The translations under genes and the position numbers were made by a program. 64,000 nucleotides of DNA from assembly GCA_035358035.1 (NCBI GenBank), contig DAOPOS010000011.1:1477-65476 (forward strand), given 5' to 3'. This DNA comes from Syntrophales bacterium. Lineage in GTDB: Bacteria; Desulfobacterota; Syntrophia; Syntrophales; UBA2251. The notes under the pieces were generated by a model. That model saw only the letters and a list, made by a program, of their open reading frames with translations. It did not search any database and was not told where the DNA came from. Of the stretch, positions 31,665 to 62,302 are shown piece by piece (positions within the stretch are counted from its first letter, which is position 1; the number at the start of each line of letters is the position of its first letter).

Positions 31665-33206
31665 ATGAAGCTGTCGTTTACGAACATCAGGGAGATGGTG
31701 GAGATTCAGGCCCGCCGCTACGGGGACCGGATCGCCATCCGCTACTACGAACGGGACATCACCTATCGGGAGCTTGACGGGCGGAGCAACCGGGTGGCCA
31801 ACGGCCTTCTCAAGCTGGGGGTCCGGAAGGGCGACCGGGTCTGCATCCTGATGGACAACAGCCCGGAGTTCTATGAGGCCTATTTCGGCATCATCAAGAT
31901 CGGGGCGATCGCGGGTCCGGTCAACTGCTGGTGGCAGACCGGTGAGATCCAGTACCTGCTCAACGATTCCGGGGCGGTGGCCCTGTTTTGCGATCATGCC
32001 TACCGGGGGCACGTCGACAAGATCATCGACGGGACGCCGGCCCTGAAGCACGTCATCGAACGGGAGGCGACCGACGACCGGTTTCTGAAGTTCGAGGACC
32101 TGCAAAAGGAGGCGGCCGAGCTCACCCCCGTCGAGATCGCGCTCGACGACGTGGCGACGATCGTCTACACTTCGGGGACGACGGGCAACCCCAAGGGGGT
32201 GCTGCTCACCCACAGGAACATCCTGACAAACTCCTGGCAGGCGAGCCTGCTCGCCAACATCGACGAGAACGACGTCATCATGTGCTTCCTCCCCCTGTTC
32301 CACGTCAACGGCCTCGTCATCACCGGGACGTCTCCGCTGTCGAAGGGGTCCCAGATCATCCTGCGCCGGAACTTCTCGGCCTCCGAGTTCTGGGAGTGCG
32401 TCGCGAAGTACCGCGTCTCGATCTTCAGCGGCGTGCCGACGGTGTACCAGATTCTCCTGAACACGCCGGGGTTCGAGGGGGTGGACGTGTCTTCGCTGCG
32501 CTACGGCGTCTGCGGGGCGGCCCCCATGCCCGTGGAGACCATCCGGAAGTTCGAGGAGACCTTCAACATGATCATCATCGAGGGGTACGGGCTGACCGAG
32601 GGCACCGCCGGGGCGACGGCCAATCCCATCGACGGTGTCCGGAAGATCGGTTCCATCGGGATCCCCTTCGCGGAAAGCGAGATCCGGCTTCTCGACGAGC
32701 AGGACCGGGAGGTGCCCCAGGGGGAGGTCGGCGAAATCTGCGTCAAGGGCGACCACGTCATGAAGGGCTACTTCAACAAGCCGGAGGAGACGGCCCAGAC
32801 CCTGCGGGGCGGATGGCTCCACACGGGGGACATGGCCTACAAGGACGAGGAGGGGTACCTGTTCATCGTGGACCGGAAGAAGGAGATGATCATCCGGGGC
32901 GGCGAGAACATCTACCCCAAGGAACTGGAAGGCATCATCTTCCGCCACCCCCAGGTCATGGAGGTTGCGGTCGTCGGGGCGCCCGACCCGATCTACGGCG
33001 AGGAGGTGATGGCCTGCCTCGTGCTCCATCCGGGCCAGGCGCTGACGGAAGAGGCATTCAAAGCCTGGTGCCGGGAAAACATGGCCTCGTACAAGGTTCC
33101 GAAATACGTGGATATCCGGACGGCGCTGCCCAAGAACATCCTGGGCAAGATCCTCAAGAAGGAGCTGAAATCCGCGCTGAAGGCGGAGGGGAAGATCACC
33201 GCGTAA
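31665..33206 (+). CDS. AMP-forming acyl-CoA ligase
   Basis: YTSGTTGNPKGV, EGYGLTE and GWLHTGDMAYKDEEGYLFIVDRKKEMI motifs. Confidence 0.85.
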   Translation: MKLSFTNIREMVEIQARRYGDRIAIRYYERDITYRELDGRSNRVANGLLKLGVRKGDRVCILMDNSPEFYEAYFGIIKIGAIAGPVNCWWQTGEIQYLLNDSGAVALFCDHAYRGHVDKIIDGTPALKHVIEREATDDRFLKFEDLQKEAAELTPVEIALDDVATIVYTSGTTGNPKGVLLTHRNILTNSWQASLLANIDENDVIMCFLPLFHVNGLVITGTSPLSKGSQIILRRNFSASEFWECVAKYRVSIFSGVPTVYQILLNTPGFEGVDVSSLRYGVCGAAPMPVETIRKFEETFNMIIIEGYGLTEGTAGATANPIDGVRKIGSIGIPFAESEIRLLDEQDREVPQGEVGEICVKGDHVMKGYFNKPEETAQTLRGGWLHTGDMAYKDEEGYLFIVDRKKEMIIRGGENIYPKELEGIIFRHPQVMEVAVVGAPDPIYGEEVMACLVLHPGQALTEEAFKAWCRENMASYKVPKYVDIRTALPKNILGKILKKELKSALKAEGKITA

Positions 33207-33330: not shown

Positions 33331-35232
33331 TTATTTCTTCCCGTAGCCGATCTTCTGCGCGGCGTCGGTGATGCTCCCGAGGACGGAGGCGTCCTCGATG
33401 GTGGACGGGACATCGAAGTCCTCGCCGTTGGCGATCTTGCGCATGGTGCTCCGGAGGATCTTGCCGGACCGGGTTTTCGGGAGGGCCTTGACGACGACGC
33501 ACTGCTTGAAGCAGGCCACGGCGCCGATCTCGTCCCGGACCATCCGGACGAGCTCCTGCTCGATCTCCGCCGGGTCGCGGTCGCTGCCCGCCTTGAGAAC
33601 GACGAATCCCAGCGGCACTTCGCCCTTCAGCGTATCCTGGACGCCCAGGACGGCGCACTCCGCCACGTCCTTGTGCTTGGAGACGATCTCTTCCATGGCG
33701 CCGGTTGAGAGCCGGTGTCCCGCCACGTTGATGACATCGTCGATCCGCCCCATGATGAAGATGTAGCCGTCCTCGTCGTAATAGCCGCCGTCGCCCGTGA
33801 CGTAGCAGTCGGGGATCTTGTTGACGTATTCCAGGAACCGCTCGTCGTCCTTCCACAGGGTGGGCATGCAGCCGGGGGGCAGGGGCAGGCGGATGACGAC
33901 ATAGCCCTCCTGCCCGTTCGGGAGCTCCTCGCCGCGGAAATCCGTGATCTTCACGTTGTAGCCGGGCGCCGGCTTGGTGGGGGAGCCCGCCTTGATGGGG
34001 AAGGGCTCGACGCCCATGCAGTTGGCCGCAATGGCCCAGCCCGTTTCCGTCTGCCACCAGTGATCCACCACGGGGATCTTGAGCATGTCGCTCGCCCAGT
34101 GGTAGGTGTCCGGATCGAGGCGCTCACCGGCCAGGAAGAGGTAGCGGAGGGAACGGATATCGTACTTCTTCAGATAGGTTCCCTGCGGATCCTCCTTCTT
34201 GATGGCGCGGAAGGCCGTCGGGGCAGTGAAAAGGACGGAGACGCCGTGCTCGGAGATGACCCGCCAGAAGGCGCCGGGATCGGGGGTGCCGACGGGCTTC
34301 CCTTCATAGAGCACCGTGGTGCAGCCGGTCAACAGCGGTGCGTAGACGATATAGGAATGGCCGACCACCCAGCCCACGTCGGAGGCCGCCCAGTACACCT
34401 CGCCGGGCTTGATGTCGTAGATGTACTTCATCGACCACTTGAGGGCCACGGCATGGCCCCCGTTGTCCCGCATGACCCCCTTGGGACGGCCCGTGGTCCC
34501 GGAGGTGTAGAGGATGTACAGGGGATCCGTCGCGGCGACGGGGACGCAGGGAACCGCCTTGGCGTCGGCCATCACGGCGTCCCAGGCCAGATCGCGGCCG
34601 GGCGTCAGCTCCGCCGTCACCTGGGGGCGCTGATAGATGATGCATGTTTCGGGCTTGTGATCGGCGAGCTTGACGGCCTCGTCCAGGAGGGGCTTGTAGG
34701 GGATGGTCTTTTTCCCCTCGATGCCGCAGGAGGCGGTCACGATCAGCCTCGGCTTGGCGTCGTTGATGCGGATGGCCAGTTCGTTGGGGGCGAAGCCGCC
34801 GAAGACCACGGAATGGACGGCGCCGATGCGGGCGCAGGCCAGCATCGCCATGACGGCCTCCGGGATCATGGGCATGTAGATGATGACCGTATCGCCCTTG
34901 CGCACGCCCTGGGCGGTGAGGGCGCCGGCGAATCTGGCGACCTGATCCAGGAGCTCCCGATAGCTGATCTTCCGGACGGTTCCGGTGACGGGGCTGTCGT
35001 AGATGATGGCGGCCTGCTCACCGCGACCCGACTCCACCTGGTAATCCAGGGCGTTGAAGCAGGTGTTCAACTCCCCGCCGGCAAACCAGCGATAAAACGG
35101 CTTGTTGCTGTCGTCGAGCACCCGGTCCCACTTCTTCGTCCATTGGATCTCCTCCGCCGCCCGGCCCCAGAAAAGCTCCGGCTGGTGAATGGATTGTTCG
35201 TAAACCTCGGCATACCTCAACTGGCTGGACAT
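33331..35232 (-). CDS. prpE: propionate/acetate--CoA ligase (PrpE-like)
   Basis: ATG 35232 after GGAGGGA. FWGRAAEEIQW, RWFAGGELNTCFNALD, YTSGTTGRPKGV and INVAGHRLSTG motifs. Confidence 0.75.
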   Translation of the reverse strand: MSSQLRYAEVYEQSIHQPELFWGRAAEEIQWTKKWDRVLDDSNKPFYRWFAGGELNTCFNALDYQVESGRGEQAAIIYDSPVTGTVRKISYRELLDQVARFAGALTAQGVRKGDTVIIYMPMIPEAVMAMLACARIGAVHSVVFGGFAPNELAIRINDAKPRLIVTASCGIEGKKTIPYKPLLDEAVKLADHKPETCIIYQRPQVTAELTPGRDLAWDAVMADAKAVPCVPVAATDPLYILYTSGTTGRPKGVMRDNGGHAVALKWSMKYIYDIKPGEVYWAASDVGWVVGHSYIVYAPLLTGCTTVLYEGKPVGTPDPGAFWRVISEHGVSVLFTAPTAFRAIKKEDPQGTYLKKYDIRSLRYLFLAGERLDPDTYHWASDMLKIPVVDHWWQTETGWAIAANCMGVEPFPIKAGSPTKPAPGYNVKITDFRGEELPNGQEGYVVIRLPLPPGCMPTLWKDDERFLEYVNKIPDCYVTGDGGYYDEDGYIFIMGRIDDVINVAGHRLSTGAMEEIVSKHKDVAECAVLGVQDTLKGEVPLGFVVLKAGSDRDPAEIEQELVRMVRDEIGAVACFKQCVVVKALPKTRSGKILRSTMRKIANGEDFDVPSTIEDASVLGSITDAAQKIGYGKK

Positions 35233-35329
35233 ACGTTTCCCTCCCTGCAGTAATTTTCGGCGATCGAGGCGTCGCACTCCACCGCTCTATTCCATTCCGC
35301 GATTCAATCAAGTGATGGATACAGGAGGC

Positions 35330-35374: not shown

Positions 35375-38300
35375 CTAGGGTTGAACCGGGCCCGCCGGGG
35401 TTCTCTTGACGCCCAGTTTGTTCATCCGAAAGGCCAGCGTGGAGGGCGGAATGTCCAGAAGCTCCGCCGCACCGCCCTTCCCGCGGACTTTCCAGCCCGT
35501 TTTTTCCAGCGCCCAGAGGATATGGCGCCGTTCATTGTCGCGCAGGGTGACGACGCCCTTCCGGGGGCCGGTTTCCGGGTGCTGCATGGCGCCCAGTTCC
35601 GGAACCTTGAAGATCGGACCGGACGAGAGGATCGTGCCGCGCTCGATGATGTTTTCCAGCTCGCGGACGTTGCCGGGCCAGTCGTACTGGATGAGTTTCT
35701 CCATCTCCGCTTCGGTGATCCGGGAAAATTCCTTCCCCCGCTTCTGGGAGTAGATCCTGAGAAAATAGTATGCGAGCCGGGGGATGTCCTCTTTCCGCTC
35801 TCTCAGGGGAGGCACGTAGACGGGGAACACGGCCAGGCGGTAGTACAGGTCCGAACGAAACGTCTGGGCCTTGACCAGCCCTTCCAGGTTGCGGTTCGTG
35901 GCGACGATGAGGCGGAAGTCGGAACGCAGGGTTTCGCTTCCACCGACCCGCTCGAACTCCTTGGTCTGCAGGACCCTCAGCAGGCGGACCTGGATGTCCG
36001 GACTGATGTCGCCGATCTCGTCCAGGAACAGGGTCCCGCCGTCGGCCAGTTCGAACCGGCCCAGCCGACGCCGCATGGCCCCCGTGAAGGACCCCTTTTC
36101 ATGGCCGAACAGCTCGCTGGGGATCAGGCTCTCGGGGAGCGCGCTGCAATGGACCCGGATAAAGGGCTTGTCCCGCCGGGCGCTGTGGCGGTGGATGGCC
36201 CGGGCAACCAGTTCCTTGCCCACGCCGGTTTCTCCGACGATCATGACGGTGGCGTCCGTCTGGGCGACCTGCTCCACCTGGCTCAGGACATGTTTGATGC
36301 CGGAACTTTCGCCGACGATGTCCTCGAAGTGGAGGTTCTTCAGGTGCTCTTCCTTGTAGTACAGATTCTCCTCGGAGAGCTTGCGGTTCAGGCGCCTGAT
36401 TTCTTCATAGGCGCTGACGTTGTCCAGGGCGAAGGCCGCCCACGCCGCGAAGTAGGAGATGAGATCGAGGTCGGATTCCTTGAAGGCGCTGCTCAGAAGC
36501 CGGTTGTCGTGGTAGAGCACCCCCACGGTCTTGTCCCGCAGGATCATGGGGACGCAGATGCGGGAGCGGATGATTTCGCCGGCCGACAGGGCCTGGTTCT
36601 CCAGGTCCGACTCGAAGATTCTCCCCTGGCCGGTCGCGGCGACATCGTCGATCATCTTCATGGAGGAGGCGAAGCTCTCATGGCTGATCTGCTCCTGGGT
36701 CAGATTCTTGGAAGCCCGGAGGAGGAGTTTCCGGGGCGAACGCCCGTCTTCGAAAAGGAAGATGGCCCCCCGCTCCGCGCCGGTGATCCGGTTCAGGGTG
36801 GTGATGATGTGCTGGATCAGATCCTTGTTGTCGCGGATGGTGACCACTTCATGACCGAGCTTGATGATCTCCTTCAGGAGGCTTTCCCCCACCGGCCGGT
36901 TCTTGATCAGAACCCGCAGGTCGTCCGGAACCATCTCTTCGTTGAACGTGGCGAGGATCTTGCTCGTGATCTGCATCAGTTCCTGCGCCTTGCCCTCCTC
37001 CCCGCTGGCCAGGTATTGGCGGGCCAGCTCCAGGCGCGTCTTGGACAGTTCGATCTGGTGCCCCGCCTCGTCCAGCCACCGGACGGCATGGTTCAGAATG
37101 GGGATGATCTCCTTCGGGGGGGCGCCATCCATCTTCCGGACCAAGGCGAGGAACCGATAGGCCACCCCCTTGAGAAAGATGTTTTTCCCCTTGATCAGGA
37201 CGTTGACTTCCTTCTCGAGGGAAAGGCCGTCGATCTGGGGCAGCTTGCCCGTCTTCATGGCGAGGCACAGTTCCAGGAGGTACGGGTACAGGTAGACGGT
37301 GGCCTGGACTTTCTTGCTCTGCTGCAGGAAATCCCTGAGGTGCCGAACGGCCGGTTTCGTTTCGCCCCGGAGGTAGTAGAGGTAGGACAGGTTGATGTTG
37401 ATGGACATTCCGACCCAGTCGTTGTGGGACTTCTTCGCTTCCCGGCCCGAGGTTTCCAGAAAGGACAGGGCGTCTTCCCGCCGGCCGATGTCGAGCAGGA
37501 TGTTGCCGATGTTTCCCGCGGTATGGCAAGCCAGGTACAGATCCCCCCGCTCCAGGCAGTGGTTCCGGATGGCGTCCAGCATCCCCAGGCCCTGCGTCAC
37601 TTGGCCGATCTGGGCGTAGCAGTAGCCGATGGTGATGTTGGCCAGCAGATTGAAGCTCTCCCGGGGATAGTTTTCGATGTCGGAAACGGACTGTTCGTAG
37701 ATCTGGATGGCGTCCTTGAAGCGTCCCTGCCAGTACAGGAAAAAGGTTGAGAAATTCATGGCCGAGCGCATCAATCTCGGTTCGTTCAGTTCTTTGGCCA
37801 GGGCCCAGCCCTGATCGAACCACTGCATGGCGCTGTCGTAGCGGGAACGGAGCCACTCGTTCTTGGCCATGTGCATTTTGAGAATCGCCTGGGTGTCCTT
37901 CAGGTTGCGCTTTTCCGCCCTTTCCAGGGCCGCCTGCAGGATGGAGAGGACGTGGGCGGTGTCGTGGCGGGCGGTCGAAACCTTGGAATACTGGATGGCC
38001 GTGCGGGCAAACAGGCGGTCCTCATCCTCGCCGTACCGGGTCGCGAGGTCGTCGAGGACCTTGGTGTAGCACTGGAGGGCGTCTTCGGCCCGAAAGGCGT
38101 TCCGGTGAAGGTCGCCGGCGGCGGTCAGGTACTGGCACCGTTCCGTGTCGTTGACGATGTGGATGAGGTGATGGGCCAGGGCGTGGGCCTTCTGGTCATC
38201 GTCCGGCAACTGGCGCATCAGGGTGTCCGCGATGAAACCGTGCGCGATGGTCTCCTCCTGTTCGGAAAGGCGCTGCTTCCAGTCATCCTTTTTCCTGGGA

Positions 38301-38497
38301 TGCGAAAAGCGGTACTGACCGGGACCCTCCTGGCGCAGCACGCCCTCGCCGACGCCGTTGGCGAGCAGGGAAAGGATTTCGGAAGGTTTCTTGTCCGAAA
38401 AGAGATCCATCAGCCAGTCGATCGAAAAGGTCTCCTGAAAAAGCGCGGCCGTGGCCAACAAGCGCTGGTAATCGTTCTGCACGGGATCGGTTTCCAC
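35375..38497 (-). CDS. sigma-54-dependent transcriptional activator with long TPR-like N-terminal region, GAF domain, AAA+ domain and Fis-type HTH
   Basis: GETGVGKE Walker A; ELFGHEKGSFTGA (GAFTGA-type loop); C-terminal AAELLDIPPSTLAFRMNKLG. GTG start after AAGGAG. Confidence 0.85.
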   Translation of the reverse strand: METDPVQNDYQRLLATAALFQETFSIDWLMDLFSDKKPSEILSLLANGVGEGVLRQEGPGQYRFSHPRKKDDWKQRLSEQEETIAHGFIADTLMRQLPDDDQKAHALAHHLIHIVNDTERCQYLTAAGDLHRNAFRAEDALQCYTKVLDDLATRYGEDEDRLFARTAIQYSKVSTARHDTAHVLSILQAALERAEKRNLKDTQAILKMHMAKNEWLRSRYDSAMQWFDQGWALAKELNEPRLMRSAMNFSTFFLYWQGRFKDAIQIYEQSVSDIENYPRESFNLLANITIGYCYAQIGQVTQGLGMLDAIRNHCLERGDLYLACHTAGNIGNILLDIGRREDALSFLETSGREAKKSHNDWVGMSININLSYLYYLRGETKPAVRHLRDFLQQSKKVQATVYLYPYLLELCLAMKTGKLPQIDGLSLEKEVNVLIKGKNIFLKGVAYRFLALVRKMDGAPPKEIIPILNHAVRWLDEAGHQIELSKTRLELARQYLASGEEGKAQELMQITSKILATFNEEMVPDDLRVLIKNRPVGESLLKEIIKLGHEVVTIRDNKDLIQHIITTLNRITGAERGAIFLFEDGRSPRKLLLRASKNLTQEQISHESFASSMKMIDDVAATGQGRIFESDLENQALSAGEIIRSRICVPMILRDKTVGVLYHDNRLLSSAFKESDLDLISYFAAWAAFALDNVSAYEEIRRLNRKLSEENLYYKEEHLKNLHFEDIVGESSGIKHVLSQVEQVAQTDATVMIVGETGVGKELVARAIHRHSARRDKPFIRVHCSALPESLIPSELFGHEKGSFTGAMRRRLGRFELADGGTLFLDEIGDISPDIQVRLLRVLQTKEFERVGGSETLRSDFRLIVATNRNLEGLVKAQTFRSDLYYRLAVFPVYVPPLRERKEDIPRLAYYFLRIYSQKRGKEFSRITEAEMEKLIQYDWPGNVRELENIIERGTILSSGPIFKVPELGAMQHPETGPRKGVVTLRDNERRHILWALEKTGWKVRGKGGAAELLDIPPSTLAFRMNKLGVKRTPAGPVQP

Positions 38498-38692
38498 GTT
38501 TCCGGTCTCCTTTAACCCCTGAAAAACCTGCAGGCGCCGTTGCCGGCCGCGACGGACGGCAGCGCCCCGAACCTGATCCGAACGCTATCACAAGACGTGA
38601 ACTCAATCAAGGACCCTGCCCCGGATGGGTTCATCCGGCCGTCACGGGATTGCGGCGGGTCGGGGCGGGGGGGCGGAACCGAACGGCGGGGT

Positions 38693-38941
38693 TCAGTGTT
38701 CGAGCTTGACGAAATCCGGAATGTTCTCCAAACGGATCCCGTCCTGAACCTGCTCGAGAAAGGTTCTCCCTTCGCGGGTAATGTGGACGAGACCCTCCAG
38801 GTTGAGGATGACGCTGTACTTTGTCTGAAGGCGGTTCTGGCATGTATGGTTGAGAACGGCGGAGGCGTCCTGGTCCAGCACCCCGTCCACCTTCATGACG
38901 ATCGTGCGGTCATCGACGAACTTTTCCTTGATGTAGATCAT
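38693..38941 (-). CDS. small STAS-like protein (by-eye assignment)
   Basis: ATG 38941. 82 aa: MIYIKEKFVDDRTIVMKVDGVLDQDASAVL...SVILNLEGLVHITREGRTFL resembles an anti-sigma antagonist fold. Upstream of, and co-oriented with, the activator gene. Confidence 0.4.
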   Translation of the reverse strand: MIYIKEKFVDDRTIVMKVDGVLDQDASAVLNHTCQNRLQTKYSVILNLEGLVHITREGRTFLEQVQDGIRLENIPDFVKLEH

Positions 38942-39142
38942 GCTTCGACACCGTCGGCCTGAATTTGCCTGCTCAATACCTCGCAATTTACATGCCCGCG
39001 CCCGTAGTCACACCGATTGACGGGCGAAAACCGCGGGGGGAATGGCCCCCGGATCCATGGCGGTTCGGCCTCTCCGGGCCGTGGTCTTTTCCCGGGGGGC
39101 GCCCCCGGAACGACACCCTCGGCTGAAAGGGAGAGGCGTCCA

Positions 39143-39181
39143 TGCACAACATCCCGATGGCCGGAAACAGCATGTTGCGCA
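39143..39181. promoter_or_regulatory. candidate enhancer (UAS) inverted repeat TGCACAACAT-N19-ATGTTGCGCA
   Basis: 9 of 10 positions complementary. Ends 75 nt upstream of the sigma-54 promoter at 39257. The same half-sites recur at 46364-46401. Confidence 0.55.
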
Positions 39182-39256
39182 ATTGACCGGGGCCCCGGGG
39201 CGCCCGCGAGGGACAAGATATGGTGTTCATGAGTGAGAATGAGGGGTTGTGATGCT

Positions 39257-39272
39257 TGGCTTCAATTTTGCG
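39257..39272 (+). promoter_or_regulatory. sigma-54 promoter (TGGCTT-N5-TTGCG)
   Basis: GG at 39258-39259 and GC at 39270-39271 have canonical -24/-12 spacing. Upstream of the ABC/ligase operon. Confidence 0.65.
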
Positions 39273-39458
39273 TAGAAGGATAGATCCGGAAGGCAGGCCA
39301 ATCCCCCCATCAATAGCAGGTTGCCCGGGAGGGGTCCCGGTCTTTCGGGGCCGACCGCGGGCGCCTTGGCCGATCGGCCTTCATCATGCGGGGGGCAGGA
39401 TCAGCGGACGACTGTGCGTCAGGCGTCGACGTTTGCCGACGGGAGCCAGGGGGTTCAG

Positions 39459-40253
39459 ATGCTGAGGGTCACCAATCTCGAAACCACCTACAACGACATC
39501 ATTCTGGCCTTGAAGGGCATTTCCCTCGAGGTCCCGACGGGACGCATCGTTGCCCTCCTCGGCGCCAACGGCGCCGGCAAGACCACGACGATCAACACCG
39601 TCTCCGGGATCCGGAAAGCCATCGACCTTGAGATCGAGGACGGGAAGGTGGAGTTCGACGGCCGGGACATCGGCGCCCTCGAACCGCACGAGGTGGTCTC
39701 CCTGGGCATCTCACAGGTCCCGGAAGGACGTCGTATCTTTGCCGAACTGACGGTGGAAGAAAACATCCTTATTGGTTCCTATGGCCTGAAGGAGAGAAAA
39801 AACTTCATTCGCAACGAGGAGATGGTCTTTAACTATTTCCCGATTCTCAAGGAGCGGCGGCGGCAGCAGGCCGGCTATCTCAGCGGCGGGGAGCAGCAGA
39901 TGCTGGCCATCGCTCGGGCCCTCATCGCCGAGCCCCGGCTGATCATGCTGGACGAACCGTCCCTCGGGCTGGCGCCCCTGGTCGTGAGAGAAATATTCGA
40001 CATCCTCGGCCATATCAACCGGGAGCGGGGGGTGGCCATCCTGCTGGTGGAGCAGAACGCCAACGTGGCCCTGTCGATCGCCCACTATGGATACATTATG
40101 GAGACCGGCCGCATCGTGATGGAGGGGCCCAGTGACGTGCTTCGCGAAAATCGGGACATCAAGGAATTTTACCTGGGCCTGACGGATGTGGGCACCCAAA
40201 AAAGCTTCCGGGACGTCAAACATTACAAGAGACGGAAACGATGGCTGTCATGA
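39459..40253 (+). CDS. liv-type ABC transporter ATP-binding protein (LivF-like) with basic C-terminal tail
   Basis: Internal ATG 39459. GANGAGKTT, LSGGEQQML and LDEPSLGLAP motifs. Tail: GLTDVGTQKSFRDVKHYKRRKRWLS. Confidence 0.85.
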   Translation: MLRVTNLETTYNDIILALKGISLEVPTGRIVALLGANGAGKTTTINTVSGIRKAIDLEIEDGKVEFDGRDIGALEPHEVVSLGISQVPEGRRIFAELTVEENILIGSYGLKERKNFIRNEEMVFNYFPILKERRRQQAGYLSGGEQQMLAIARALIAEPRLIMLDEPSLGLAPLVVREIFDILGHINRERGVAILLVEQNANVALSIAHYGYIMETGRIVMEGPSDVLRENRDIKEFYLGLTDVGTQKSFRDVKHYKRRKRWLS

Positions 40254-41029
40254 ATCAGGAGGCTTCCCTTCAACTCGAGATCGCGGATCTGTCCATGAGT
40301 TTTGGCGGGATCCAGGCCATTCGAGGCGTCTCCTTTGGGGTCCAGCGGGGCGAGATCTATTCCATCATCGGACCGAACGGGGCCGGGAAGACCACCATCT
40401 TCAACTGTATCAGCGGGATTTACCGGGCCAAAACGGGCAGCATCCGCTTCGAAAACCGCGAACTGATCGGCCTCAAGCCGGACCGGATCGCGCAACTCGG
40501 CGTCTCCAGGGCGTTTCAGAACATCGCCCTGTTCAAGGGAATGACCGTTCTCGACAACCTGATGTCGGCGCGCGTCCACCTCATGAAGTACGGATTGCTC
40601 GGGGCCGCCGTTTACCTCGGCCGCTGTCTTCGGGAAGAGGTTCAGAACCGCGACGAAGTCGAAGACGTGATCGAGTTTCTCGATCTGCAGCCGGTGCGCA
40701 AATCGCCGGTCGGGAGCCTGTCGTACGGCCTGCAGAAGCGGGTGGAGCTGGCCCGGGCCCTGGCCATGAAGCCGAAGCTGATGCTGGTCGACGAACCCGT
40801 GAGCGGCATGAATCTCGAAGAACGCGAGGACATGGCGCGGTACATCATCGACATCAACGAGGAGAGGGACATCACGGTGATCCTCATCGAACATGACATG
40901 GGACTCGTCATGGACCTGTCCGATCGCGTGACGGTCCTGAATTTCGGCACCAAGATCGCTGAGGGCGCCCCGGGGGACGTCAGCAGGAATCCGGAGGTGG
41001 TCCAGGCGTACCTCGGGGAGGCGGGATGA
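40241..41029 (+). CDS. liv-type ABC transporter ATP-binding protein (LivG-like)
   Basis: GPNGAGKTT, and the LivG-type insertion before the signature YGLQKRVELARAL. 13-nt overlap with the upstream gene. Confidence 0.85.
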   Translation: MAVMNQEASLQLEIADLSMSFGGIQAIRGVSFGVQRGEIYSIIGPNGAGKTTIFNCISGIYRAKTGSIRFENRELIGLKPDRIAQLGVSRAFQNIALFKGMTVLDNLMSARVHLMKYGLLGAAVYLGRCLREEVQNRDEVEDVIEFLDLQPVRKSPVGSLSYGLQKRVELARALAMKPKLMLVDEPVSGMNLEEREDMARYIIDINEERDITVILIEHDMGLVMDLSDRVTVLNFGTKIAEGAPGDVSRNPEVVQAYLGEAG

Positions 41030-41078
41030 CATCGCGCGGCCCGATGCCTTGTCCCGACCGGTTGGGGGAAAGGGATTC

Positions 41079-42890
41079 ATGGAGAGGGTAGAGACCACGC
41101 TGCCGAAACTCCTGTTGGAGAAGGCCCGGATCTATGGGGGGCGGGTCGCCATGCGGGAGAAGTACAAGGGCATCTGGCAGGAAATCTCGTGGAACGCCTA
41201 CCGGGACAAGGTCGAGGCCTTCTCGCTGGGCCTTGTAGCGCTGGGCATGACGAAGGGGGATCAGGTCTCGATCTTGGGAGAGAACTGCCCGGAGTGGATC
41301 TTTGCCGACCTCGCGATCCAGAGCGTGGGTGGCGTGGCGGTCGGCATCTATCCGACGAATTCGGCCGACCAGGTCCGGTATATCCTCGACCACAGCGAAT
41401 CCCGGTTCGTGGTCGTCAAGGACCAGGAGCAGGCGGACAAGGTACTCGCGGCCCAGGCGTCGCTGCTCCGCCTTGCGAAGATCATCGTGATCGACATGAA
41501 GGGGCTGCGCCATTACGAAGAGCCCCTCATCGTCAGCTATCGGGAGGTGGAAGCGGCCGGCCGGGAGGCGGCCCGTCAGGACCCGGAACGCTTTCCCCGG
41601 CTCGCGGCGGCGACCCGGCCCGAGGATGTGGCCTTTATCGTCTACACCTCGGGCACCACGGGGCATCCCAAGGGCGCCATGATTTCGCACCGGAACATCA
41701 TCCATCAGATCGTCAACGGCCTGCAGCCGATCCTGCGCTTCACGGATCGGGACACCCTGCTGTCCTATCTGCCGCTGTGCCATATCCTGGAGCGAAACCT
41801 GTCCATGGCAATGCCCCTGGTGTTCGGCTACACTATTAACTTTGCCGAGTCGATCGAGACGGTTCAGCAGAATATTCAGGAGATCGGTCCGACGTTCTTT
41901 GCCGCCGTTCCGCGGATCCTCGAAAAGCTCCACTCGAGCGTCCAGATCCGGATGGGGGATTCAACGCGGTTCAAGCGCTGGGTGTATCGGGCCTGGCAAC
42001 CGGTCGGGCGCCGGGTTTCGCAGTTTGAAATGAGCGGCGAGCCGGTTCCCTGGGGCTGGCGGCTCCTGTACGCCCTGGGTTATCTCTTCAGCTATCGCGC
42101 CATCCGGGACAAGATCGGAATGCTCAACTGCCGTTGCCTGATGAGCGGCGGCGCCCCCATTGCGCCCGAGATCCTGAGTTTCTTCCGTTCGCTGGGCGTG
42201 CGGACCATCGAGATGTACGGGATCACGGAAACGGCGGGAACGGTGTCCGGTCCCCAGGGCACAATCAAGCATGGCTCCGTGGGCGAGCCGTGCCGGGCGC
42301 TGGAACTCAAACTGGCCGAGGACGGGGAGATCCTGCTGCGCGGGGATTCGATCTTTGTCGGATACTACCGGGATCCCGAGGCGACCCACGATGTCCTTCC
42401 AGACGGCTGGTTCCATACGGGCGATGTCGGCGAACTCGACGCGGACGGCCATCTTTACATCGTCGACCGCAAGAAGGACATCATCATCACCTCCGGAGGG
42501 AAAAACATCTCTCCCTCGGAGATCGAAAACAAACTCAAGTGCAGCACCTACATCAAGGAGGCCATCGTCATCGGGGATCGCCGCAACTACATCACCGCCC
42601 TGATCCAGATCGATTACGACAACGTGGGCAACTGGGCGCAGAAGAACAGGATCCCCTACACGACCTACCGGAGTCTGGCGGAAAATCCGTCCGTCCACGA
42701 TCTGATCCGCGAGGAGGTCCATGCCGCGAACGAAGGTCTCGCCCAGGTGGAAACCGTCAAGAAGTTCAAGATCCTGGAGAAGGAACTGGACCAGGATGAC
42801 GAGGAACTGACGGCCACGCAGAAGGTGAAACGCAAAATCATCGAGGAGCGGTTCAAAGGGGAAATCGACGCGATGTACACGGGGCGGTGA
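41079..42890 (+). CDS. long-chain-type AMP-forming acyl-CoA ligase embedded in the ABC operon
   Basis: YTSGTTGHPKGA, YGITETAG and GWFHTGDVGELDADGHLYIVDRKKDII motifs. Internal ATG 41079. Confidence 0.85.
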   Translation: MERVETTLPKLLLEKARIYGGRVAMREKYKGIWQEISWNAYRDKVEAFSLGLVALGMTKGDQVSILGENCPEWIFADLAIQSVGGVAVGIYPTNSADQVRYILDHSESRFVVVKDQEQADKVLAAQASLLRLAKIIVIDMKGLRHYEEPLIVSYREVEAAGREAARQDPERFPRLAAATRPEDVAFIVYTSGTTGHPKGAMISHRNIIHQIVNGLQPILRFTDRDTLLSYLPLCHILERNLSMAMPLVFGYTINFAESIETVQQNIQEIGPTFFAAVPRILEKLHSSVQIRMGDSTRFKRWVYRAWQPVGRRVSQFEMSGEPVPWGWRLLYALGYLFSYRAIRDKIGMLNCRCLMSGGAPIAPEILSFFRSLGVRTIEMYGITETAGTVSGPQGTIKHGSVGEPCRALELKLAEDGEILLRGDSIFVGYYRDPEATHDVLPDGWFHTGDVGELDADGHLYIVDRKKDIIITSGGKNISPSEIENKLKCSTYIKEAIVIGDRRNYITALIQIDYDNVGNWAQKNRIPYTTYRSLAENPSVHDLIREEVHAANEGLAQVETVKKFKILEKELDQDDEELTATQKVKRKIIEERFKGEIDAMYTGR

Positions 42891-42932
42891 GATCGCGGCC
42901 GTGACGTCCGGATCGGGAAGAGGGGTGGAGGC

Positions 42933-43832
42933 ATGGAGAAGATTCTGGAGATCCTGTTGAACGGCCTGTCCATGGGGGCCATTTACGCCCTGCTGGCCCT
43001 GGGGTTCGTCCTCATCTTCAAATCGACCGGCGTCATCAATTTTGCCCAGGGCGAACTGGCCATGGTGGGGGCCTTCATCTGCTACAGCTTCGCGACGCTC
43101 ATGGACGTGCCTTATGTCTATGCCTTCCTTATCGCCCTGATCGGCGGCCTCGTTCTGGGCGCGATCGTCTATCAGGTCTTCTTCCGGACGATGGTGGGCG
43201 AGCCCCTGTTCTCGACGATCATGGTGACCGTCGGGCTCGCGAGCATCCTCACCTGCGTGGCCGGCCTCATCTGGGGACACGACGTCTATTCGCTCCGCTC
43301 CCCCTTCACGGACAAGATCTTCAACCTCGGGGGGATCATCTTCGCCCAGGGTTCGTTCTTCACCATTATCGTGTCCGTTGCCCTGTTCGCCCTGTTTGTC
43401 CTGTTTTTCAATCGCTCGCTCCTCGGGATCTCCATGCGCGGGACGGCCGAGGACCCCGATACCGCGGGGCTCATGGGCATCAACGTGAAGCGGATCCACA
43501 TGGCGGCCTGGGCGCTGGGGGCGCTGGTCGCGGCAGTGGCGGGCATGTTCCTCGCGGAGCAGAGTTTCGTCCGCCTTTCCATGAGCCATACGGGGATCAA
43601 GGCCATGGCGGCGGCGATTCTCGGGGGGATGGACAGCATCAGCGGTGCCATCCTGGGCGGGATCCTCATCGGCCTGGTCGAAGGCCTGGCCGCGAGCTAT
43701 CTGAGCGGCATGGAGCTGGGGAACTTCCACCTGGGGGACATCAAGGATGTGGCCGCCTTCGCGATCATGATCCTCGTGCTCATGGTCCGGCCGCACGGCA
43801 TCTTCGGCCGGGAAAAGGTGGAGAGGGTGTAG
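42933..43832 (+). CDS. branched-chain-type ABC permease (LivH-like)
   Basis: LLNGLSMGAIYALLALGFVLIF N-terminus; about 8 TM helices. Confidence 0.85.
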   Translation: MEKILEILLNGLSMGAIYALLALGFVLIFKSTGVINFAQGELAMVGAFICYSFATLMDVPYVYAFLIALIGGLVLGAIVYQVFFRTMVGEPLFSTIMVTVGLASILTCVAGLIWGHDVYSLRSPFTDKIFNLGGIIFAQGSFFTIIVSVALFALFVLFFNRSLLGISMRGTAEDPDTAGLMGINVKRIHMAAWALGALVAAVAGMFLAEQSFVRLSMSHTGIKAMAAAILGGMDSISGAILGGILIGLVEGLAASYLSGMELGNFHLGDIKDVAAFAIMILVLMVRPHGIFGREKVERV

Positions 43833-43840
43833 GGACCGCC

Positions 43841-44875
43841 ATGGCGAACTTCAAGGTCAGCTATCAGGCAGATACGGCGCTGTTCCAGAACCTCTGGGTC
43901 AAGTCCTGGCTGGCGATCTTCGTGGTGGCGATGATTGCGTTCCCCTTCCTGATGTCCCGTTATCAGTTGAGCATCTTGAACGAGATGGGCATTGCCGTCA
44001 TCGGCGCCCTGGGGCTGAATCTTTTGACGGGCTACACGGGACAGATTTCCCTGGGGCACGGGGCCTTCGTGGCCATCGGCGCCTACACCACCGGTCTGCT
44101 GGCCGGAACGCTTGGCGTTCCCTTTGTGATCTCGCTGCCCCTCTCCGGTCTGATGGCCGCCCTTCTGGGCATGATCGTGGGGATCCCTTCCCTGCGCCTC
44201 AAGGGGCTCTATCTGGCCCTGGGGACGCTGGCCTTCGGCTTCATCGTGGAATACGTCCTCTTCCACTGGGACCTCACCCAGGGGGATATGGGCATGGCCG
44301 TTCCCAAGATCGGCGCGGGAGGGGTGCTCATCGAAACGGAGCGGCAGTATTTCTTTCTGATCATGTCGTTTGCGGTCCTGGCCACGCTTGTCGCGAAGAA
44401 TCTCGTGCGCACCAAGATCGGCCGCTGCTTCGTGGCCATCCGGGACCGGGACATCGCCGCGGAGGCCATGGGAATCTCGCTCGCCAAGTACAAGATCATG
44501 GCTTTTGCCGTCAGCGCCTTCTACGCCGGCGTGGCGGGATGTCTGATGGCCCATTACCAGAAATGGATCGTCCCCGGAAACTTTGACATCTCCCTGTCCA
44601 TCGCGTATATTGCCATGATCGTTCTCGGGGGGATGGGAACCATCCTGGGGTCTATCCTCGGGGCCATCCTGATTACCGGCATTCCTCACGGCATTGTTTT
44701 TCTGACCGACACCTTTCGCGATACGTATCCCGGCCTCAGCGGGCTGATTGTGGATATCAAGCTGGGCATTTTCGGCCTCATCATCGTCCTCACGCTGCTG
44801 TTCGAGCCCCAGGGGCTGTTCGGGATCTATCGGCGGATCAAGGTCTACTGGAAGACCTGGCCCTTCAAGTATTGA
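43841..44875 (+). CDS. branched-chain-type ABC permease (LivM-like)
   Basis: GQISLGHGAFVAIGAY motif; polytopic. Confidence 0.85.
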   Translation: MANFKVSYQADTALFQNLWVKSWLAIFVVAMIAFPFLMSRYQLSILNEMGIAVIGALGLNLLTGYTGQISLGHGAFVAIGAYTTGLLAGTLGVPFVISLPLSGLMAALLGMIVGIPSLRLKGLYLALGTLAFGFIVEYVLFHWDLTQGDMGMAVPKIGAGGVLIETERQYFFLIMSFAVLATLVAKNLVRTKIGRCFVAIRDRDIAAEAMGISLAKYKIMAFAVSAFYAGVAGCLMAHYQKWIVPGNFDISLSIAYIAMIVLGGMGTILGSILGAILITGIPHGIVFLTDTFRDTYPGLSGLIVDIKLGIFGLIIVLTLLFEPQGLFGIYRRIKVYWKTWPFKY

Positions 44876-45033
44876 GCGGCGGGCCTGCCGTTCGCAGATA
44901 CGCGGCGGCGTCCGCCGATTTTCGTCGAAGGAGGCCGTTGTTCCGGCACAGGGATGCGGAAAGGGCCCTCGACCCCCCGGGGAGGGGCGGGGGAGACATC
45001 GATGGATCCAACCATGACAAAGGAGGGGAAGCG

Positions 45034-46248
45034 ATGAAAATCAGAACGTGGAGATGGAGTGTCGTTTTGGCGGTCGTCCTGTGCCTGTCGGTCGGCAGCG
45101 CCTGGGCGGCGGCCGTGCGCGGGGTGACGGACAAGGAAATCAAGCTGGCCTGTCTCGTGGACCTGTCGGGTCCGGGGAAGTACGGCGGACCGCCCATTGC
45201 CGATGCCTTCCGGGATTACGTGGCCTGGGTGAACGACACGGGCGGCATCAACGGCCGGAAGATCAACCTGATCGTCGAGGACAACGGGATTCTGCCCACC
45301 ACGACGATGAACGCCGCCAAGAAGGTGATCCTCAAGGACGAGGTCCTCGCCATCGCCTTCAACCTGGGCAGTGCCGGGTCGAGTGCCATCCTGCCCCTGT
45401 GTGAGGAGAACCAGGTCGTCCTGATGCCCCACGGGGCCAACAAGGAGTTCTATTCCCCCGGCAACAAATGGGTCTTCGTGCCCCATACGGTCCAGTTCAG
45501 CATGGCGTCGCGGGCGGTCGAATACATTCTCGGAAAGAACAAAAAAGCGAAGATCGGGATGATTTATCAGGACGACGATTTCGGGAAGGAAGGTCTGGAA
45601 GGCGCCCGCGCGGCGGCCAAGTTCATGAAGACCAAGCTGGTGGCGGAGGCCCCCTACAAGACCGGGACCATCGATTTCACGCCGCACATGAACGCCATGA
45701 AGGAGGCCAACGTGGACACCATCGTCCTCTGGACGTACCTGCCCCAGTCGGCCGCCATCATCAAGCAGAAGGTCAAGATGGGCTGGGATGTCCAGCTGAT
45801 CTCCAACAACACGACCGGCGTCCCGCCGCTGTTCGCCCTGACGGGAGAGGCGGCGGACGGCTACATGCTCGTCACGCCCTACGCCCCGGGACACATGGAC
45901 CTGCCGGGGATCAAGCGCATCAAGGCAATCAACGCGAAATACGGCAACCCCGCCAAGACCCTGGGCAACCCCATGTACCCGGATTACCTGTATCTGGCGG
46001 GCTGGGGGTACATCGAGGCCATGGGCCAGGGGCTCCGCAAGGCGGGGCGGAACCTGAACCCCGAAACGCTGGTCAAGGGGCTCGAAAGCGTCAAGAACTT
46101 CGACATGGGGGGGCTTTCCCCGAACATCACCTTCGGTCCGAAACAGCACGTGAGCAGCTTTTCCAGCCTCGTTCTCCGGGCGGATGGAAAGGCCAAACGT
46201 TTTGTCATCGTCGATTCGATCAAGGCGCCGCGGACGCCCCAGAAGTGA
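45034..46248 (+). CDS. periplasmic substrate-binding protein (Leu/Ile/Val-binding family fold)
   Basis: ATG 45034 after AGGAGGGG. Signal peptide MKIRTWRWSVVLAVVLCLSVGSAWA, then GVTDKEIKLACLVDLSGPG. Confidence 0.8.
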   Translation: MKIRTWRWSVVLAVVLCLSVGSAWAAAVRGVTDKEIKLACLVDLSGPGKYGGPPIADAFRDYVAWVNDTGGINGRKINLIVEDNGILPTTTMNAAKKVILKDEVLAIAFNLGSAGSSAILPLCEENQVVLMPHGANKEFYSPGNKWVFVPHTVQFSMASRAVEYILGKNKKAKIGMIYQDDDFGKEGLEGARAAAKFMKTKLVAEAPYKTGTIDFTPHMNAMKEANVDTIVLWTYLPQSAAIIKQKVKMGWDVQLISNNTTGVPPLFALTGEAADGYMLVTPYAPGHMDLPGIKRIKAINAKYGNPAKTLGNPMYPDYLYLAGWGYIEAMGQGLRKAGRNLNPETLVKGLESVKNFDMGGLSPNITFGPKQHVSSFSSLVLRADGKAKRFVIVDSIKAPRTPQK

Positions 46249-46363
46249 CCGGGTGAATCGCCCGACCCGGTCGGACACGCCGCCGATCAGGGGCCCGGAG
46301 GCGGATGCGCCCGTCGTCCGGCCCCTGCCCCCCGGGGGGTGAACAACCCCCCGACGCGCGCCC

Positions 46364-46401
46364 GCGCAACATGTGGAGGGTCAGGAAACCGTATGTTGTG
46401 C
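46364..46401. promoter_or_regulatory. candidate enhancer (UAS) inverted repeat GCGCAACAT-N20-ATGTTGTGC
   Basis: Half-sites match those at 39143-39181, and both spacers contain GGAAAC. Ends 73 nt upstream of the sigma-54 promoter at 46475. Confidence 0.55.
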
Positions 46402-46474
46402 CTCCCGAGGGGGTTTTCGGGCGGCATGAATGGCAAGCCTTTGAAATCATGGCGATCTGTTTGTGAATGAGGAG

Positions 46475-46490
46475 TGGCACCCATTTTGCT
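46475..46490 (+). promoter_or_regulatory. sigma-54 promoter, consensus TGGCAC-N5-TTGCT
   Basis: Exact match to TGGCAC-N5-TTGCW, 58 nt upstream of the SDR gene's GTG. Confidence 0.8.
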
Positions 46491-46547
46491 AACGAGACGG
46501 GATACGTATTCCAGCACGCCATCAATCATTCGGAAAGGAGAAAAAAC

Positions 46548-47312
46548 GTGGATACATCCTATCTGTCACTGCAGGGAAAAGTCGCCGTCGTCACCGGAGG
46601 GAGCCGGGGCATCGGCCGGGCCGTGGCGTTGGCGCTCGCCGATGCCGGGGCCGATGTCGTCGTCGGCAGCCGCAAGCTGGCCGATCTTGAAAAGGTCGCC
46701 GAGGAGATCAGGGCCATGGGGCGAAAGGCCCTGGCGGTGGCAATGCACAACCGCGAGGTCGAAAGCATCAGGAATTTCGTCGATACCGTCGTGAAGGAAT
46801 TCGGTCGCATCGACATCCTCGTGAACAATGCGGCCACCAATCCCGGCATGGGGCTGCTCGTCGACATGGACGAGAAGATGTACGACCAGATCATGATCAC
46901 CAACCTCAAGGGCTATACCATCCTGAGCCAGCTCGTGGGAAAGGTCATGCAGCAGCAGAAGAGCGGCAATATCGTCAACATCTCCTCCGTCGGCGGCGTG
47001 AGCCCCGATATCGGACTGGGGTTGTACTGCATCAGCAAGGCCGGGATCGGCATGCTGACCCGGGCGATGGCCAAGGAACTGGGTGATTTCGGCGTCCGCG
47101 TCAACTGCATCGCTCCCGGCGTGGTCCGGACGAAGTTCAGCCAGGCCCTGTGGAGCAATGAGCCGATGATGAAGCAGGAACTCGCCCACACGCCGATCAA
47201 ACGCATCGCCGAGCCGGAAGAGATCGGGCGGATCGCCCTGTTCCTGGCGTCGGACGCCTCGGCCTACATGACGGGGCAGATCCTGGTCGTCGACGGCGGC
47301 GGATCGATCTGA
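46548..47312 (+). CDS. short-chain dehydrogenase/reductase (FabG-like)
   Basis: GTG 46548 after AAAGGAG. TGGSRGIG, NNAA and YCISKAG (YxxxK) motifs. Confidence 0.85.
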   Translation: MDTSYLSLQGKVAVVTGGSRGIGRAVALALADAGADVVVGSRKLADLEKVAEEIRAMGRKALAVAMHNREVESIRNFVDTVVKEFGRIDILVNNAATNPGMGLLVDMDEKMYDQIMITNLKGYTILSQLVGKVMQQQKSGNIVNISSVGGVSPDIGLGLYCISKAGIGMLTRAMAKELGDFGVRVNCIAPGVVRTKFSQALWSNEPMMKQELAHTPIKRIAEPEEIGRIALFLASDASAYMTGQILVVDGGGSI

Positions 47313-47370
47313 GGACGGGTCGTCAATTCATCCCTCAGCCGGAGAGAATGCATAAGGAGGCACGGGTACC

Positions 47371-48813: not shown

Positions 48814-48976
48814 AGGCCTCCCGGTGGGAATGTCCCGGATGCGCTTTCCGCCCGCGGGCGGGGGTGCGTCCGGGCGGGGCGCCTTTTCGGGGAGTTTCGT
48901 GCCGCGCCGCTGAAGTCCGGCGTCAAGCCACGGAGGCGGGGAAGGCGCGAAGCGTTTGTTGGTGAGGAGGAGAATC

Positions 48977-50443: not shown

Positions 50444-50445
50444 CG

Positions 50446-51654: not shown

Positions 51655-51748
51655 TGGATGTCCCGGGCCGGGGGAGTGCCGGGACAGACGGCGGCCCCCC
51701 GGCGATCCAGGATGATTCTGCAAGGATGAGAGGAGCGCAGGAACCGGA

Positions 51749-52657: not shown

Positions 52658-52676
52658 TCAAGGGAGGAGGTCCACC

Positions 52677-53861: not shown

Positions 53862-53877
53862 GGAGAGGAGGTCAGTC

Positions 53878-54297: not shown

Positions 54298-54341
54298 GGT
54301 TCCGCGGCTCGGACGGGGCGGTTGGATCAAGGAGGTGGATC

Positions 54342-54791: not shown

Positions 54792-54857
54792 CGCCCGCGC
54801 GGACGGTCCCCCTCCCTGCCGGGGGAGGCGCCGGACGTGTTTGGAAGGAGACGGAAC

Positions 54858-62296: not shown

Positions 62297-62302
62297 GGTT
62301 CT

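Follow-up and report, generated by a model that had tools for sequence, protein, structure and literature searches.

The 64,000-nucleotide stretch of contig DAOPOS010000011.1 from a Syntrophales bacterium that is analysed here (the window) carries two copies of a tandem inverted-repeat element, UAS1 and UAS2, each standing upstream of a -24/-12 sequence of the sigma-54 type and a long operon behind it (Table 1). It is highly likely that the two elements are upstream activator sequences (UAS) for the bacterial enhancer-binding protein (bEBP) of 1040 amino acids encoded next to UAS1, and that they serve the sigma-54 promoters P1 and P2, and probably also a third promoter, P0. This assignment is read from DNA sequence and is built on what is observed directly, namely that the sequences are present, occur non-randomly, are deeply conserved, keep a fixed geometry and are linked to the activator gene. 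A first-pass annotation of the same DNA had already proposed two sigma-54 promoters with positioned inverted-repeat enhancers, with the activator gene lying divergently and starting 760 bp from P1. All of its coordinates proved exact to the base when checked against the sequence, the position of the activator gene included, and its central proposal is now backed by some 25 orthologous loci and by a metagenome scan.

Chance occurrence of half-sites and palindromes in the window was assessed with Markov-1 simulations (n = 200). The degenerate palindrome GCRCAAYAT-N19/20-ATRTTGYGC is present in two copies, against 1.3e-5 expected and none in the 200 simulations, in agreement with the earlier judgement that two copies of the same geometry are unlikely to have arisen by chance. 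Exact GCRCAAYAT half-sites number five where 0.83 +/- 0.88 were simulated, and four of the five make up the two palindromes; the fifth (59026) lies inside a ligase gene and has no partner half-site. The distance from the palindrome centre to the TGG of the -24 element is 92-95 nt in the two copies (94.5 nt at P1), and the 75-nt gap between repeat and TGG originally reported for P1 is exact, its counterpart at P2 being 73 nt. Relative to the predicted transcription starts, UAS1 is centred at ~-121, with dyad axes at ~-131 and ~-110, and UAS2 at ~-118, with axes at ~-129 and ~-107. Both lie in the region ~80-150 bp upstream of a -24/-12 element where the dyad of a bEBP enhancer is expected. A dyad coupled to a -24/-12 element was found in the window only at P1, P2 and P0, and no other members of the regulon were detected there.

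Conservation of this arrangement was followed in two ways. A search of a genome collection with the activator retrieved 42 full-length orthologues of 44-96% identity, all from metagenome-assembled genomes (MAGs) of Syntrophales, Smithellaceae, Desulfomonilaceae and Desulfatiglandales, the nearest (96%, locus L001) belonging to a Syntrophales MAG. In ~25 of the 42 orthologous loci, GCRCAAYAT-N18/19-ATRTTGYGC is found 100-250 bp upstream of the activator gene, together with YGGCAY-N5-TTGCW on the opposite strand, pointing away from that gene, and the -24/-12 element keeps a distance of 90.5-94.5 nt to the centre of the palindrome, or 72-76 nt to its end. Since the flanks are otherwise unalignable, palindrome and promoter (together a unit) amount to a phylogenetic footprint with fixed geometry, and the motif blocks are retained even where the orthologues share as little as 44% identity. 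Forty non-redundant units have GGCA at -24 and TTGC at -12 with high information content.

The second approach used the palindrome alone as the query, in its N19 form with inner G and C, to scan metagenomes, and accepted -24/-12 elements at up to two mismatches. Such an element lies at 88-98 nt from the centre in 21 of the 81 palindrome sites recovered, where the background rate would give 0.20 (Poisson P = 5e-35), while each other 10-nt bin from 30 to 400 nt contains 0-3 elements. Most positive contigs with enough flank encode an orthologue of the activator, and L120, like the window, carries two units, in its case 12 kb apart. The negative sites are recurrent unrelated sequences that have no sigma-54 element (L054, L062, L077, L083, L091, L102 and others). 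Unrelated palindrome matches such as GCGCAATATCGGGACATATCTCCGCGAGATATTGCGC, seen in several soil contigs, and GCACAACATAATGAAGTAGTAGCTCTTGATATTGTGC probably represent conserved coding DNA or a repeat family of a different kind.

An alignment of 42 arms from 21 independent units refines the anatomy of the enhancer. The half-site GCRCAACAT put forward in the first-pass annotation does define a candidate motif for the activator, but its fixed C is really Y (CAAYAT), and the arm, GCRCAAYATnTnG, spans 13 nt and has dyad symmetry of its own. With an inner T in 35 of the 42 arms and an inner G in 41, each arm forms an imperfect 16-bp dyad, GCRCAAYA/TRTTGygc, with a strong outer half and a weaker inner half. 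Spacers of N18-20 put the dyad axes 20-22 bp apart (21 bp in UAS1 and 22 bp in UAS2), or about two helical turns, and an axis separation of ~21 bp points to a pair of dimer sites on the same side of the helix. Independent support for the dyad reading of the arms comes from lone 16-bp dyads (e.g., GAACAACATGTTGTGC) at the promoters of a small open reading frame (ORF), described below, in L013, L015, L018, L034 and L038. The axis of these lone dyads is ~81 nt from the promoter T, which is the position of the proximal arm in two-arm units. Given such sites, one dyad may be sufficient at some targets. The GGAAAC that had been noted in the spacers is indeed present at both window units (46384-46389 in UAS2), in each case 3 nt from the proximal arm, but it is not conserved as such. 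What is kept is its G/C end and the A-tract: the C at the 3' end is the pairing partner of the proximal dyad's inner G, which is nearly invariant, and the As belong to an A-tract retained on the promoter-proximal side of the spacer.

The protein proposed to bind these sites has the make-up of a bEBP. A TPR region (residues ~120-510) and a GAF domain (558-693) are followed by a Sigma54_activat AAA+ domain (PF00158, E = 3.7e-69 over residues 727-893), an AAA_lid_14 domain and a C-terminal helix-turn-helix (HTH) domain of the HTH_8 type (984-1027; 23.1 bits against a cut-off of 22). The Walker A (GETGVGKE) and Walker B (LFLDEIGD) motifs are both present, as is a sigma-54 contact loop, EKGSFTGA. 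The GSFTGA of this loop, encoded at window position 36094 on the minus strand, is listed as a functional variant of GAFTGA (PMC4641369). The protein combines PF00158 with Walker motifs, a GAFTGA-type loop and a C-terminal HTH. Its AAA+ domain matches the solved structures of NtrC, ZraR and NifA (E = 1e-78 to 1e-85; 5e-85 for ZraR and NifA). Among the named bEBP equivalogs (NifA, FhlA, NorR, NtrC, AtoC, PrpR and others), the activator is below the cut-off in all 25 NCBIfam models listed; the best similarity is to NifA (E = 3e-122; 409 against 528.85 bits), followed by the FhlA model (listed as 'FlhA') and NorR. It is the only bEBP in the window, and its HTH is almost invariant among the orthologues. 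A test for co-evolution of HTH and motif was set aside as uninformative, though not contradictory: motif-less loci carry the same HTH as motif-bearing ones, and the test is thereby deprived of contrast.

With regard to the promoters, P2 is the sole perfect -24/-12 match in the window. It lies in non-coding DNA, co-oriented with the SDR gene and 58 nt before its GTG (46548), and the predicted start leaves a leader of ~47 nt with AGGAG before the GTG. P1 is similarly non-coding and co-oriented, 187 nt before the ATG of the first ABC ATPase gene (39459), with a predicted leader of ~176 nt. Its GG and GC dinucleotides are intact and, as had been claimed, at canonical spacing (10 bp apart), and there are three other mismatches to TGGCAC-N5-TTGCW. 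The putative promoter P0 likewise has GG and GC intact and three other mismatches, and is placed 165 nt from the centre of UAS1, on the far side from P1. Near-identical elements precede homologues of the small ORF in L018 (GGGCACGTAAATTGCA) and L034 (GGGCACGTAAATTGCT), although the proteins share only ~35% identity, and a match of this grade would turn up by chance in a 40-nt slot with a probability of 0.016. At P0 the canonical dyad position, 81 nt out, is vacant; the closer of the two UAS1 dyads is 73 bp (~seven turns) beyond it, at 154.5 nt. Judged from these positions, UAS1 is probably flanked by divergent sigma-54 promoters, P1 and P0, and with P0 on the opposite side it would be a bidirectional enhancer.

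In a simple scan, no sigma-70-like promoter was found in 38400-39500 or 46200-46600. A different situation is seen in 21 units that have TTGACW beside the UAS, where a sigma-70-type promoter, TTGACA-17-TAnnnT, stands 6-7 bp outside the distal arm (with the -10 in 19 of the 21) and is oriented toward the position of the activator gene (e.g., L017 9822-9870, L053 and L125). Once bound, the activator of those relatives would be positioned immediately upstream of the -35 element of its own gene; a promoter of this kind outside the distal arm is lacking in the window and in L001. Two leader motifs shared 3' of P1 and P2, CCATCAAT and GGATA..TATCC, were dropped as chance resemblances, being conserved neither at P1 of L001 nor in L087 and L119.

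Between enhancer and promoter there is a further conserved block, yAAC-N4/5-TGAAAtt, at ~-65 to -52, which resembles a site for integration host factor (IHF). Counted at up to two mismatches to the consensus, the IHF-like block in the YAANNNNTTGATW orientation is found at column 94 or 95 in 13 of the 40 non-redundant units, against 0.57 per slot. The WATCAANNNNTTR that is expected between UAS and promoter at an IHF-assisted promoter is matched with one mismatch at P2 and with three at P1. The block also resembles a weak activator arm. Indeed, in L015 and L016 it is a perfect extra arm, and the copy at P1 resembles a degenerate one. An IHF site is tentatively taken as the more likely of the two interpretations, ahead of a third weak activator site.

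Table 1. Positions in the window of the proposed enhancers and sigma-54 promoters and of the genes discussed.
Feature	Position	Strand	Description
Sigma-54 activator gene (bEBP)	35375-38497	-	1040 aa; TPR, GAF, AAA+ and HTH_8 domains
Small STAS/SpoIIAA-like gene (predicted)	38693-38941	-	82 aa; between activator gene and UAS1; absent from the first-pass annotation
P0, probable third sigma-54 promoter	38982-38997	-	GGGCATGTAAATTGCG; 56 nt upstream of the small-ORF ATG
UAS1 enhancer	39143-39181	.	two imperfect 16-bp dyads
UAS1 outer repeats	39143-39152 and 39172-39181		TGCACAACAT and ATGTTGCGCA; 19-nt spacer
UAS1 distal arm	39144-39156		GCACAACATCCCG
GGAAAC in UAS1 spacer	39163-39168	+	inner part of proximal dyad plus A-tract
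UAS1 proximal arm	39168-39180		CAGCATGTTGCGC
Weak IHF-like block or degenerate third activator site	39214-39226	+	CAAGATATGGTGT; 3 mismatches to YAANNNNTTGATW; ~-63
P1, sigma-54 -24/-12 element	39257-39272	+	TGGCTTCAATTTTGCG; GG 39258-39259, GC 39270-39271; predicted start ~39283
P1 operon	39459-46248	+	two ABC ATPases, 613-aa acyl-CoA ligase, two LivH/LivM-type permeases, periplasmic binding protein
UAS2 enhancer	46364-46401	.	same motif, conserved in orthologous loci
UAS2 outer repeats	46364-46372 and 46393-46401		GCGCAACAT and ATGTTGTGC; 20-nt spacer
UAS2 distal arm	46364-46376		GCGCAACATGTGG
UAS2 proximal arm	46389-46401		CCGTATGTTGTGC
IHF-like site	46434-46446	+	CAAGCCTTTGAAA; 1 mismatch to YAANNNNTTGATW; centre ~-61
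P2, sigma-54 -24/-12 element	46475-46490	+	TGGCACCCATTTTGCT; perfect match; predicted start ~46501
P2 operon	46548-56015	+	SDR, HpaB-fold enzyme, ChsH2/thiolase-like proteins, NMO-type reductase, MaoC hydratase, acyl-CoA dehydrogenase

The genes behind the promoters provide a further argument. In most of the relatives, at least ten of them, a single unit precedes a single operon encoding an amine-oxidase-like FAD flavoprotein, an HpaB-like protein, an SDR, two ABC ATPases and the 613-aa ligase. The proteins of these single operons are 60-77% identical to those of the window (L005, L010, L015, L017, L068 and others), and the ABC and ligase orthologues (62-77% identity) share the sigma-54 operon with the HpaB-like and SDR genes. 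Genes that the window divides between P1 and P2 are thus co-regulated elsewhere as parts of one operon, which is independent evidence that they form one regulon. In the lineage of the window, which is without the leading amine-oxidase-like flavoprotein, this operon has been split in two and the unit duplicated, each half having its own copy. In L087 and L119, which carry the nearest relatives of the P2 operon (81-85% identity), the same unit is found before the same operon. In a Desulfatiglandales clade the unit precedes genes for a DUF362 protein, an enoyl-CoA-hydratase-like protein and a 161-aa protein.

The P2 operon may extend further downstream than the limit given in Table 1. Its HpaB-fold protein (47371-48813, + strand) has as its nearest solved relative 4-hydroxybutyryl-CoA dehydratase/vinylacetyl-CoA isomerase (1u8v, E = 1e-71), and is closer to that oxygen-sensitive radical enzyme than to the 4-hydroxyphenylacetate hydroxylases, which fits an anaerobic acyl-CoA pathway. 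The stretch between the P1 operon and UAS2 (46245-46365, + strand) is GC-rich and contains three stable hairpins (-68.7 kcal/mol, z = -2.3) and no T-run terminator. Further acyl-CoA/acetyl-CoA synthetase-like genes are located in the neighbourhood (31665-33206, +; 33331-35277, -; 58178-59761, +), as is a second set of Liv-type binding-protein and ABC ATPase genes at 60497-63837; neither the synthetase-like genes nor this second set have a dyad or a -24/-12 element in front of them.

Between the activator gene and UAS1 lies the small ORF, a gene that the first-pass annotation had passed over. The gene accompanies this family of activators. Homologues were found at 10 genome loci and at several metagenome loci; in L028, L040, L053, L057 and L125 it heads the genes that follow the unit, and a -24/-12 element is present upstream of it in 17 of 18 other lineages. 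At 82 aa the protein is ~30 residues shorter than typical STAS proteins, and it has no match in Pfam or NCBIfam. One single-sequence AF2 model reached a pLDDT of 80, the other four 42-51, and Foldseek returned SpoIIAA and RsbV (TMq 0.6-0.7, E = 7e-4). The gene is tentatively predicted from structural modelling to encode a short STAS/SpoIIAA-like fold, and the protein may act as a partner of the activator or in feedback on it. As the simple scan gave no sigma-70-like promoter in 38400-39500, the activator gene may be co-transcribed from P0, which would constitute positive autoregulation.

A bolder proposal builds on this. The TPR-GAF bEBP and the sigma-54-dependent STAS-like protein could together form a previously undescribed feedback or partner-binding module, in which the STAS-like protein would modulate the activator, possibly via its TPR region, and which would control a widespread anaerobic catabolic pathway, with the dyad motif defining the regulon. 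Such a pathway would comprise ABC uptake, the CoA ligase, the 4-hydroxybutyryl-CoA-dehydratase-like enzyme, the amine-oxidase-like flavoprotein and the SDR, in uncultured Syntrophales, Desulfomonilaceae and Desulfatiglandales. Taken as a whole, this proposal is tentative and, on present evidence, rather unlikely.

For the enhancer assignment itself, we infer from the arrangement of sites and genes which protein binds and in what stoichiometry, what IHF contributes, that an effector is involved and where transcription starts, and a plausible sequence of events would be as follows. Two HTH dimers would bind the tandem dyads, both on the same DNA face. Sensing of an effector by the N-terminal GAF domain and/or TPR region would then lift inhibition and allow the AAA+ ring to assemble. 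The DNA between ~-107 and -26 would loop, probably helped by an IHF-type bend at ~-61, so that the GSFTGA loops could contact and remodel the sigma-54 holoenzyme held in a closed complex at -24/-12, ~118-121 bp downstream of the enhancer, and ATP hydrolysis would drive formation of the open complex. In this manner P1 would be activated for the ABC-transporter/acyl-CoA-ligase operon and P2 for the operon of SDR, 4-hydroxybutyryl-CoA-dehydratase-like and beta-oxidation-type genes. UAS1 would probably also serve the divergent P0, and with it the STAS-like gene and possibly the activator gene.

A number of points weigh against the assignment. The 64-kb window contains neither rpoN, as judged from the RpoN-box motif, nor an IHF gene; an rpoN gene is presumed to be present in the genome given the bEBP gene and the abundance of bEBPs in Thermodesulfobacteriota (PMC12316311). 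The block at ~-61 matches the IHF consensus loosely and may be a third activator site instead, and a stoichiometry of two dimers is suggested by symmetry and spacing alone. A terminator scan found no intrinsic terminator between the P1 operon and UAS2, and read-through from P1 into the P2 operon is consequently possible. The shared geometry that the first-pass annotation saw at both promoters survives as a strong preference among the relatives, but it is not absolute: enhancer-promoter distances of 230 nt (L013, L021, L080, L095 and L113) and 204 nt (L032, L049 and L082) recur, all with an orthologue of the activator nearby, and no inserted element that would account for them was identified. 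Adjacency of motif and activator gene is not universal either. Some 16 orthologous loci are devoid of the motif within +/-10 kb despite the same HTH. This is seen in a Smithella-like group and at certain Syntrophaceae loci, and the targets of these orthologues presumably lie elsewhere; in L007 the unit is 3.7 kb away, before a porin-like gene. Finally, P1 is a poor match to the consensus (TGGCTT, TTGCG), and the window contains 51 elements as good, that is, with GG and GC intact and up to three other mismatches. The sequence of P1 is unremarkable by itself, and the promoter owes its credibility entirely to where it lies and to its context.

It is this last point that gives rise to the strongest competing explanation, in which genuine sigma-54 promoters are limited to P2 and perhaps P0, the match at P1 is accidental, UAS1 serves only the STAS-like and activator genes, and the ABC/ligase operon is transcribed in some other way. 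Two of the three mismatches of P1 fall in the -24 hexamer, and matches to TGGCAC-N5-TTGC at up to two mismatches are no commoner in the window than in shuffles (34 against 48.9 expected). Moreover, the spacing of P1 from the palindrome end, 76 nt, is at the edge of the 72-76 range, its IHF-like block is weak, and a plausible promoter exists on the other side of UAS1. However, P1 falls inside the narrow slot of 90.5-94.5 nt, for which the chance is ~0.004 at a rate of 4e-4 per position, and it is the sole -24/-12-like element between UAS1 and the gene, in an upstream region of 280 bp in which the simple scan gave no sigma-70-like promoter. It is also kept in the 96%-identical relatives L001 and L047, and the occurrence of the orthologous ABC and ligase genes within a sigma-54 operon in the ten or more relatives described above likewise speaks against an accidental match. 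An accidental P1 is therefore considered unlikely.

Still less probable is that the dyads are the operator of another DNA-binding protein, a repressor or global regulator encoded elsewhere, with the bEBP binding some other sequence. The ~16 activator orthologues that have no dyad within 10 kb would agree with this, as would the units in L059, L063, L087 and L119, for which no activator gene is present in the retrieved flank. Yet the dyads lie at ~-118, the classic distance of an enhancer, and not over the promoter as would be expected of a sigma-54 repressor; the distance that separates them from the -24 element holds to within +/-2 bp even between lineages with unalignable flanks; and they are tightly linked to a bEBP gene with an invariant HTH. 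No other transcription-factor gene was found near the locus and no other regulator gene is conserved nearby, nor is there an alternative conserved block that could be the UAS. The idea that the inverted repeat is a hairpin (terminator, attenuator or cruciform), or a repeat that was duplicated or is mobile and has no part in regulation, takes its appeal from the occurrence of a 9-10 bp inverted repeat twice in 7 kb, in intergenic regions where GC-rich hairpins are common, and is effectively refuted. Variable arm positions do not covary: position 7, at which the distal arm favours T and the proximal arm C, is identical between arms in just 5 of 21 sites, and both arms share one consensus, so that the constraint acts on sequence, as in a protein site, and not on base pairing. 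The 19-nt loop is not followed by a T-run, the repeat was not reported by the terminator scan and lies upstream of the predicted start sites, and Rfam gave no match at E <= 1 over 38400-47000. Furthermore, outside the motif blocks the P1 and P2 regions scarcely align, whereas the blocks themselves can be followed in orthologues as distant as 44% identity.

An enhancer of the kind proposed here for UAS1 and UAS2 has well-known counterparts. At glnAp2 of enteric bacteria, the sigma-54 promoter is preceded by two strong dyad sites for NtrC, and extra weak sites lie nearer to it. The likeness extends to tandem dyads for an HTH_8 (Fis-type) domain on one DNA face at ~-110 to -140, to an AAA+ oligomer and looping, and to the core, which is TGCACC-N5-GGTGCA for NtrC and TGCRCA-N6-TGYGCA in the window. 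Unlike NtrC, the window activator has no receiver domain and is not part of a two-component system (NCBIfam ntrC 313.9 bits against a cut-off of 558.6), the sites are spaced by ~21 bp rather than ~32 bp, the inner half-sites are degenerate and the regulon is catabolic. NifA, acting at nifH-type promoters, and FhlA are one-component bEBPs with GAF domains, and the NifA UAS, TGT-N10-ACA, is accompanied by an IHF site before the promoter. With these the window activator shares the GAF-AAA+-HTH architecture, a dyad UAS at ~-100 to -130 and, between UAS and promoter, an element that resembles an IHF site; it differs from them in an extra TPR-rich N-terminal region of ~540 aa, in its recognition sequence, in the double UAS and in its targets, which have nothing to do with nitrogen fixation or formate metabolism. 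Catabolic operons of Pseudomonas are controlled by XylR at Pu and by DmpR at Po, which use a pair of inverted-repeat UAS together with IHF, and one regulator serves several promoters. Here, too, the gene for a one-component, effector-sensing bEBP lies beside and divergent from its catabolic operons, but the sensor is V4R/XylR-N there and TPR plus GAF in the window, the motif differs, the NCBIfam model for the phenol regulator MobR gives 272.5 bits against a cut-off of 999, and the window host is an anaerobic member of the Thermodesulfobacteriota.

A methodological precedent is provided by the comparative-genomics study of bEBP regulons in Desulfovibrio vulgaris, in which palindromes were likewise found conserved upstream of conserved sigma-54 promoters beside bEBP genes among sulfate-reducer relatives (Kazakov et al., 2015; PMC4641369); neither Syntrophales nor the window regulator and its motif come within its coverage. 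A literature search returned no paper on the motif in connection with sigma-54, on a TPR-GAF bEBP with a STAS partner, or on the gene cluster.

The arrangement is thus of the textbook enhancer/IHF/sigma-54 type and introduces no new principle. The activator itself stands outside all named equivalogs. What is gained is a motif and a promoter geometry for an unnamed, widespread family of sigma-54 activators of uncultured anaerobes. Motif and geometry together make members of the regulon predictable from sequence alone, and the metagenome scan has already turned up units distant from any activator gene. By tying the ABC/CoA-ligase module to the 4-hydroxybutyryl-CoA-dehydratase-like cluster as one pathway, the analysis also narrows the search for the substrate. 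A conserved STAS-like mini-protein, probably under sigma-54 control, emerges as a candidate co-regulator. The value of these results lies in annotation and in the design of experiments for these organisms.

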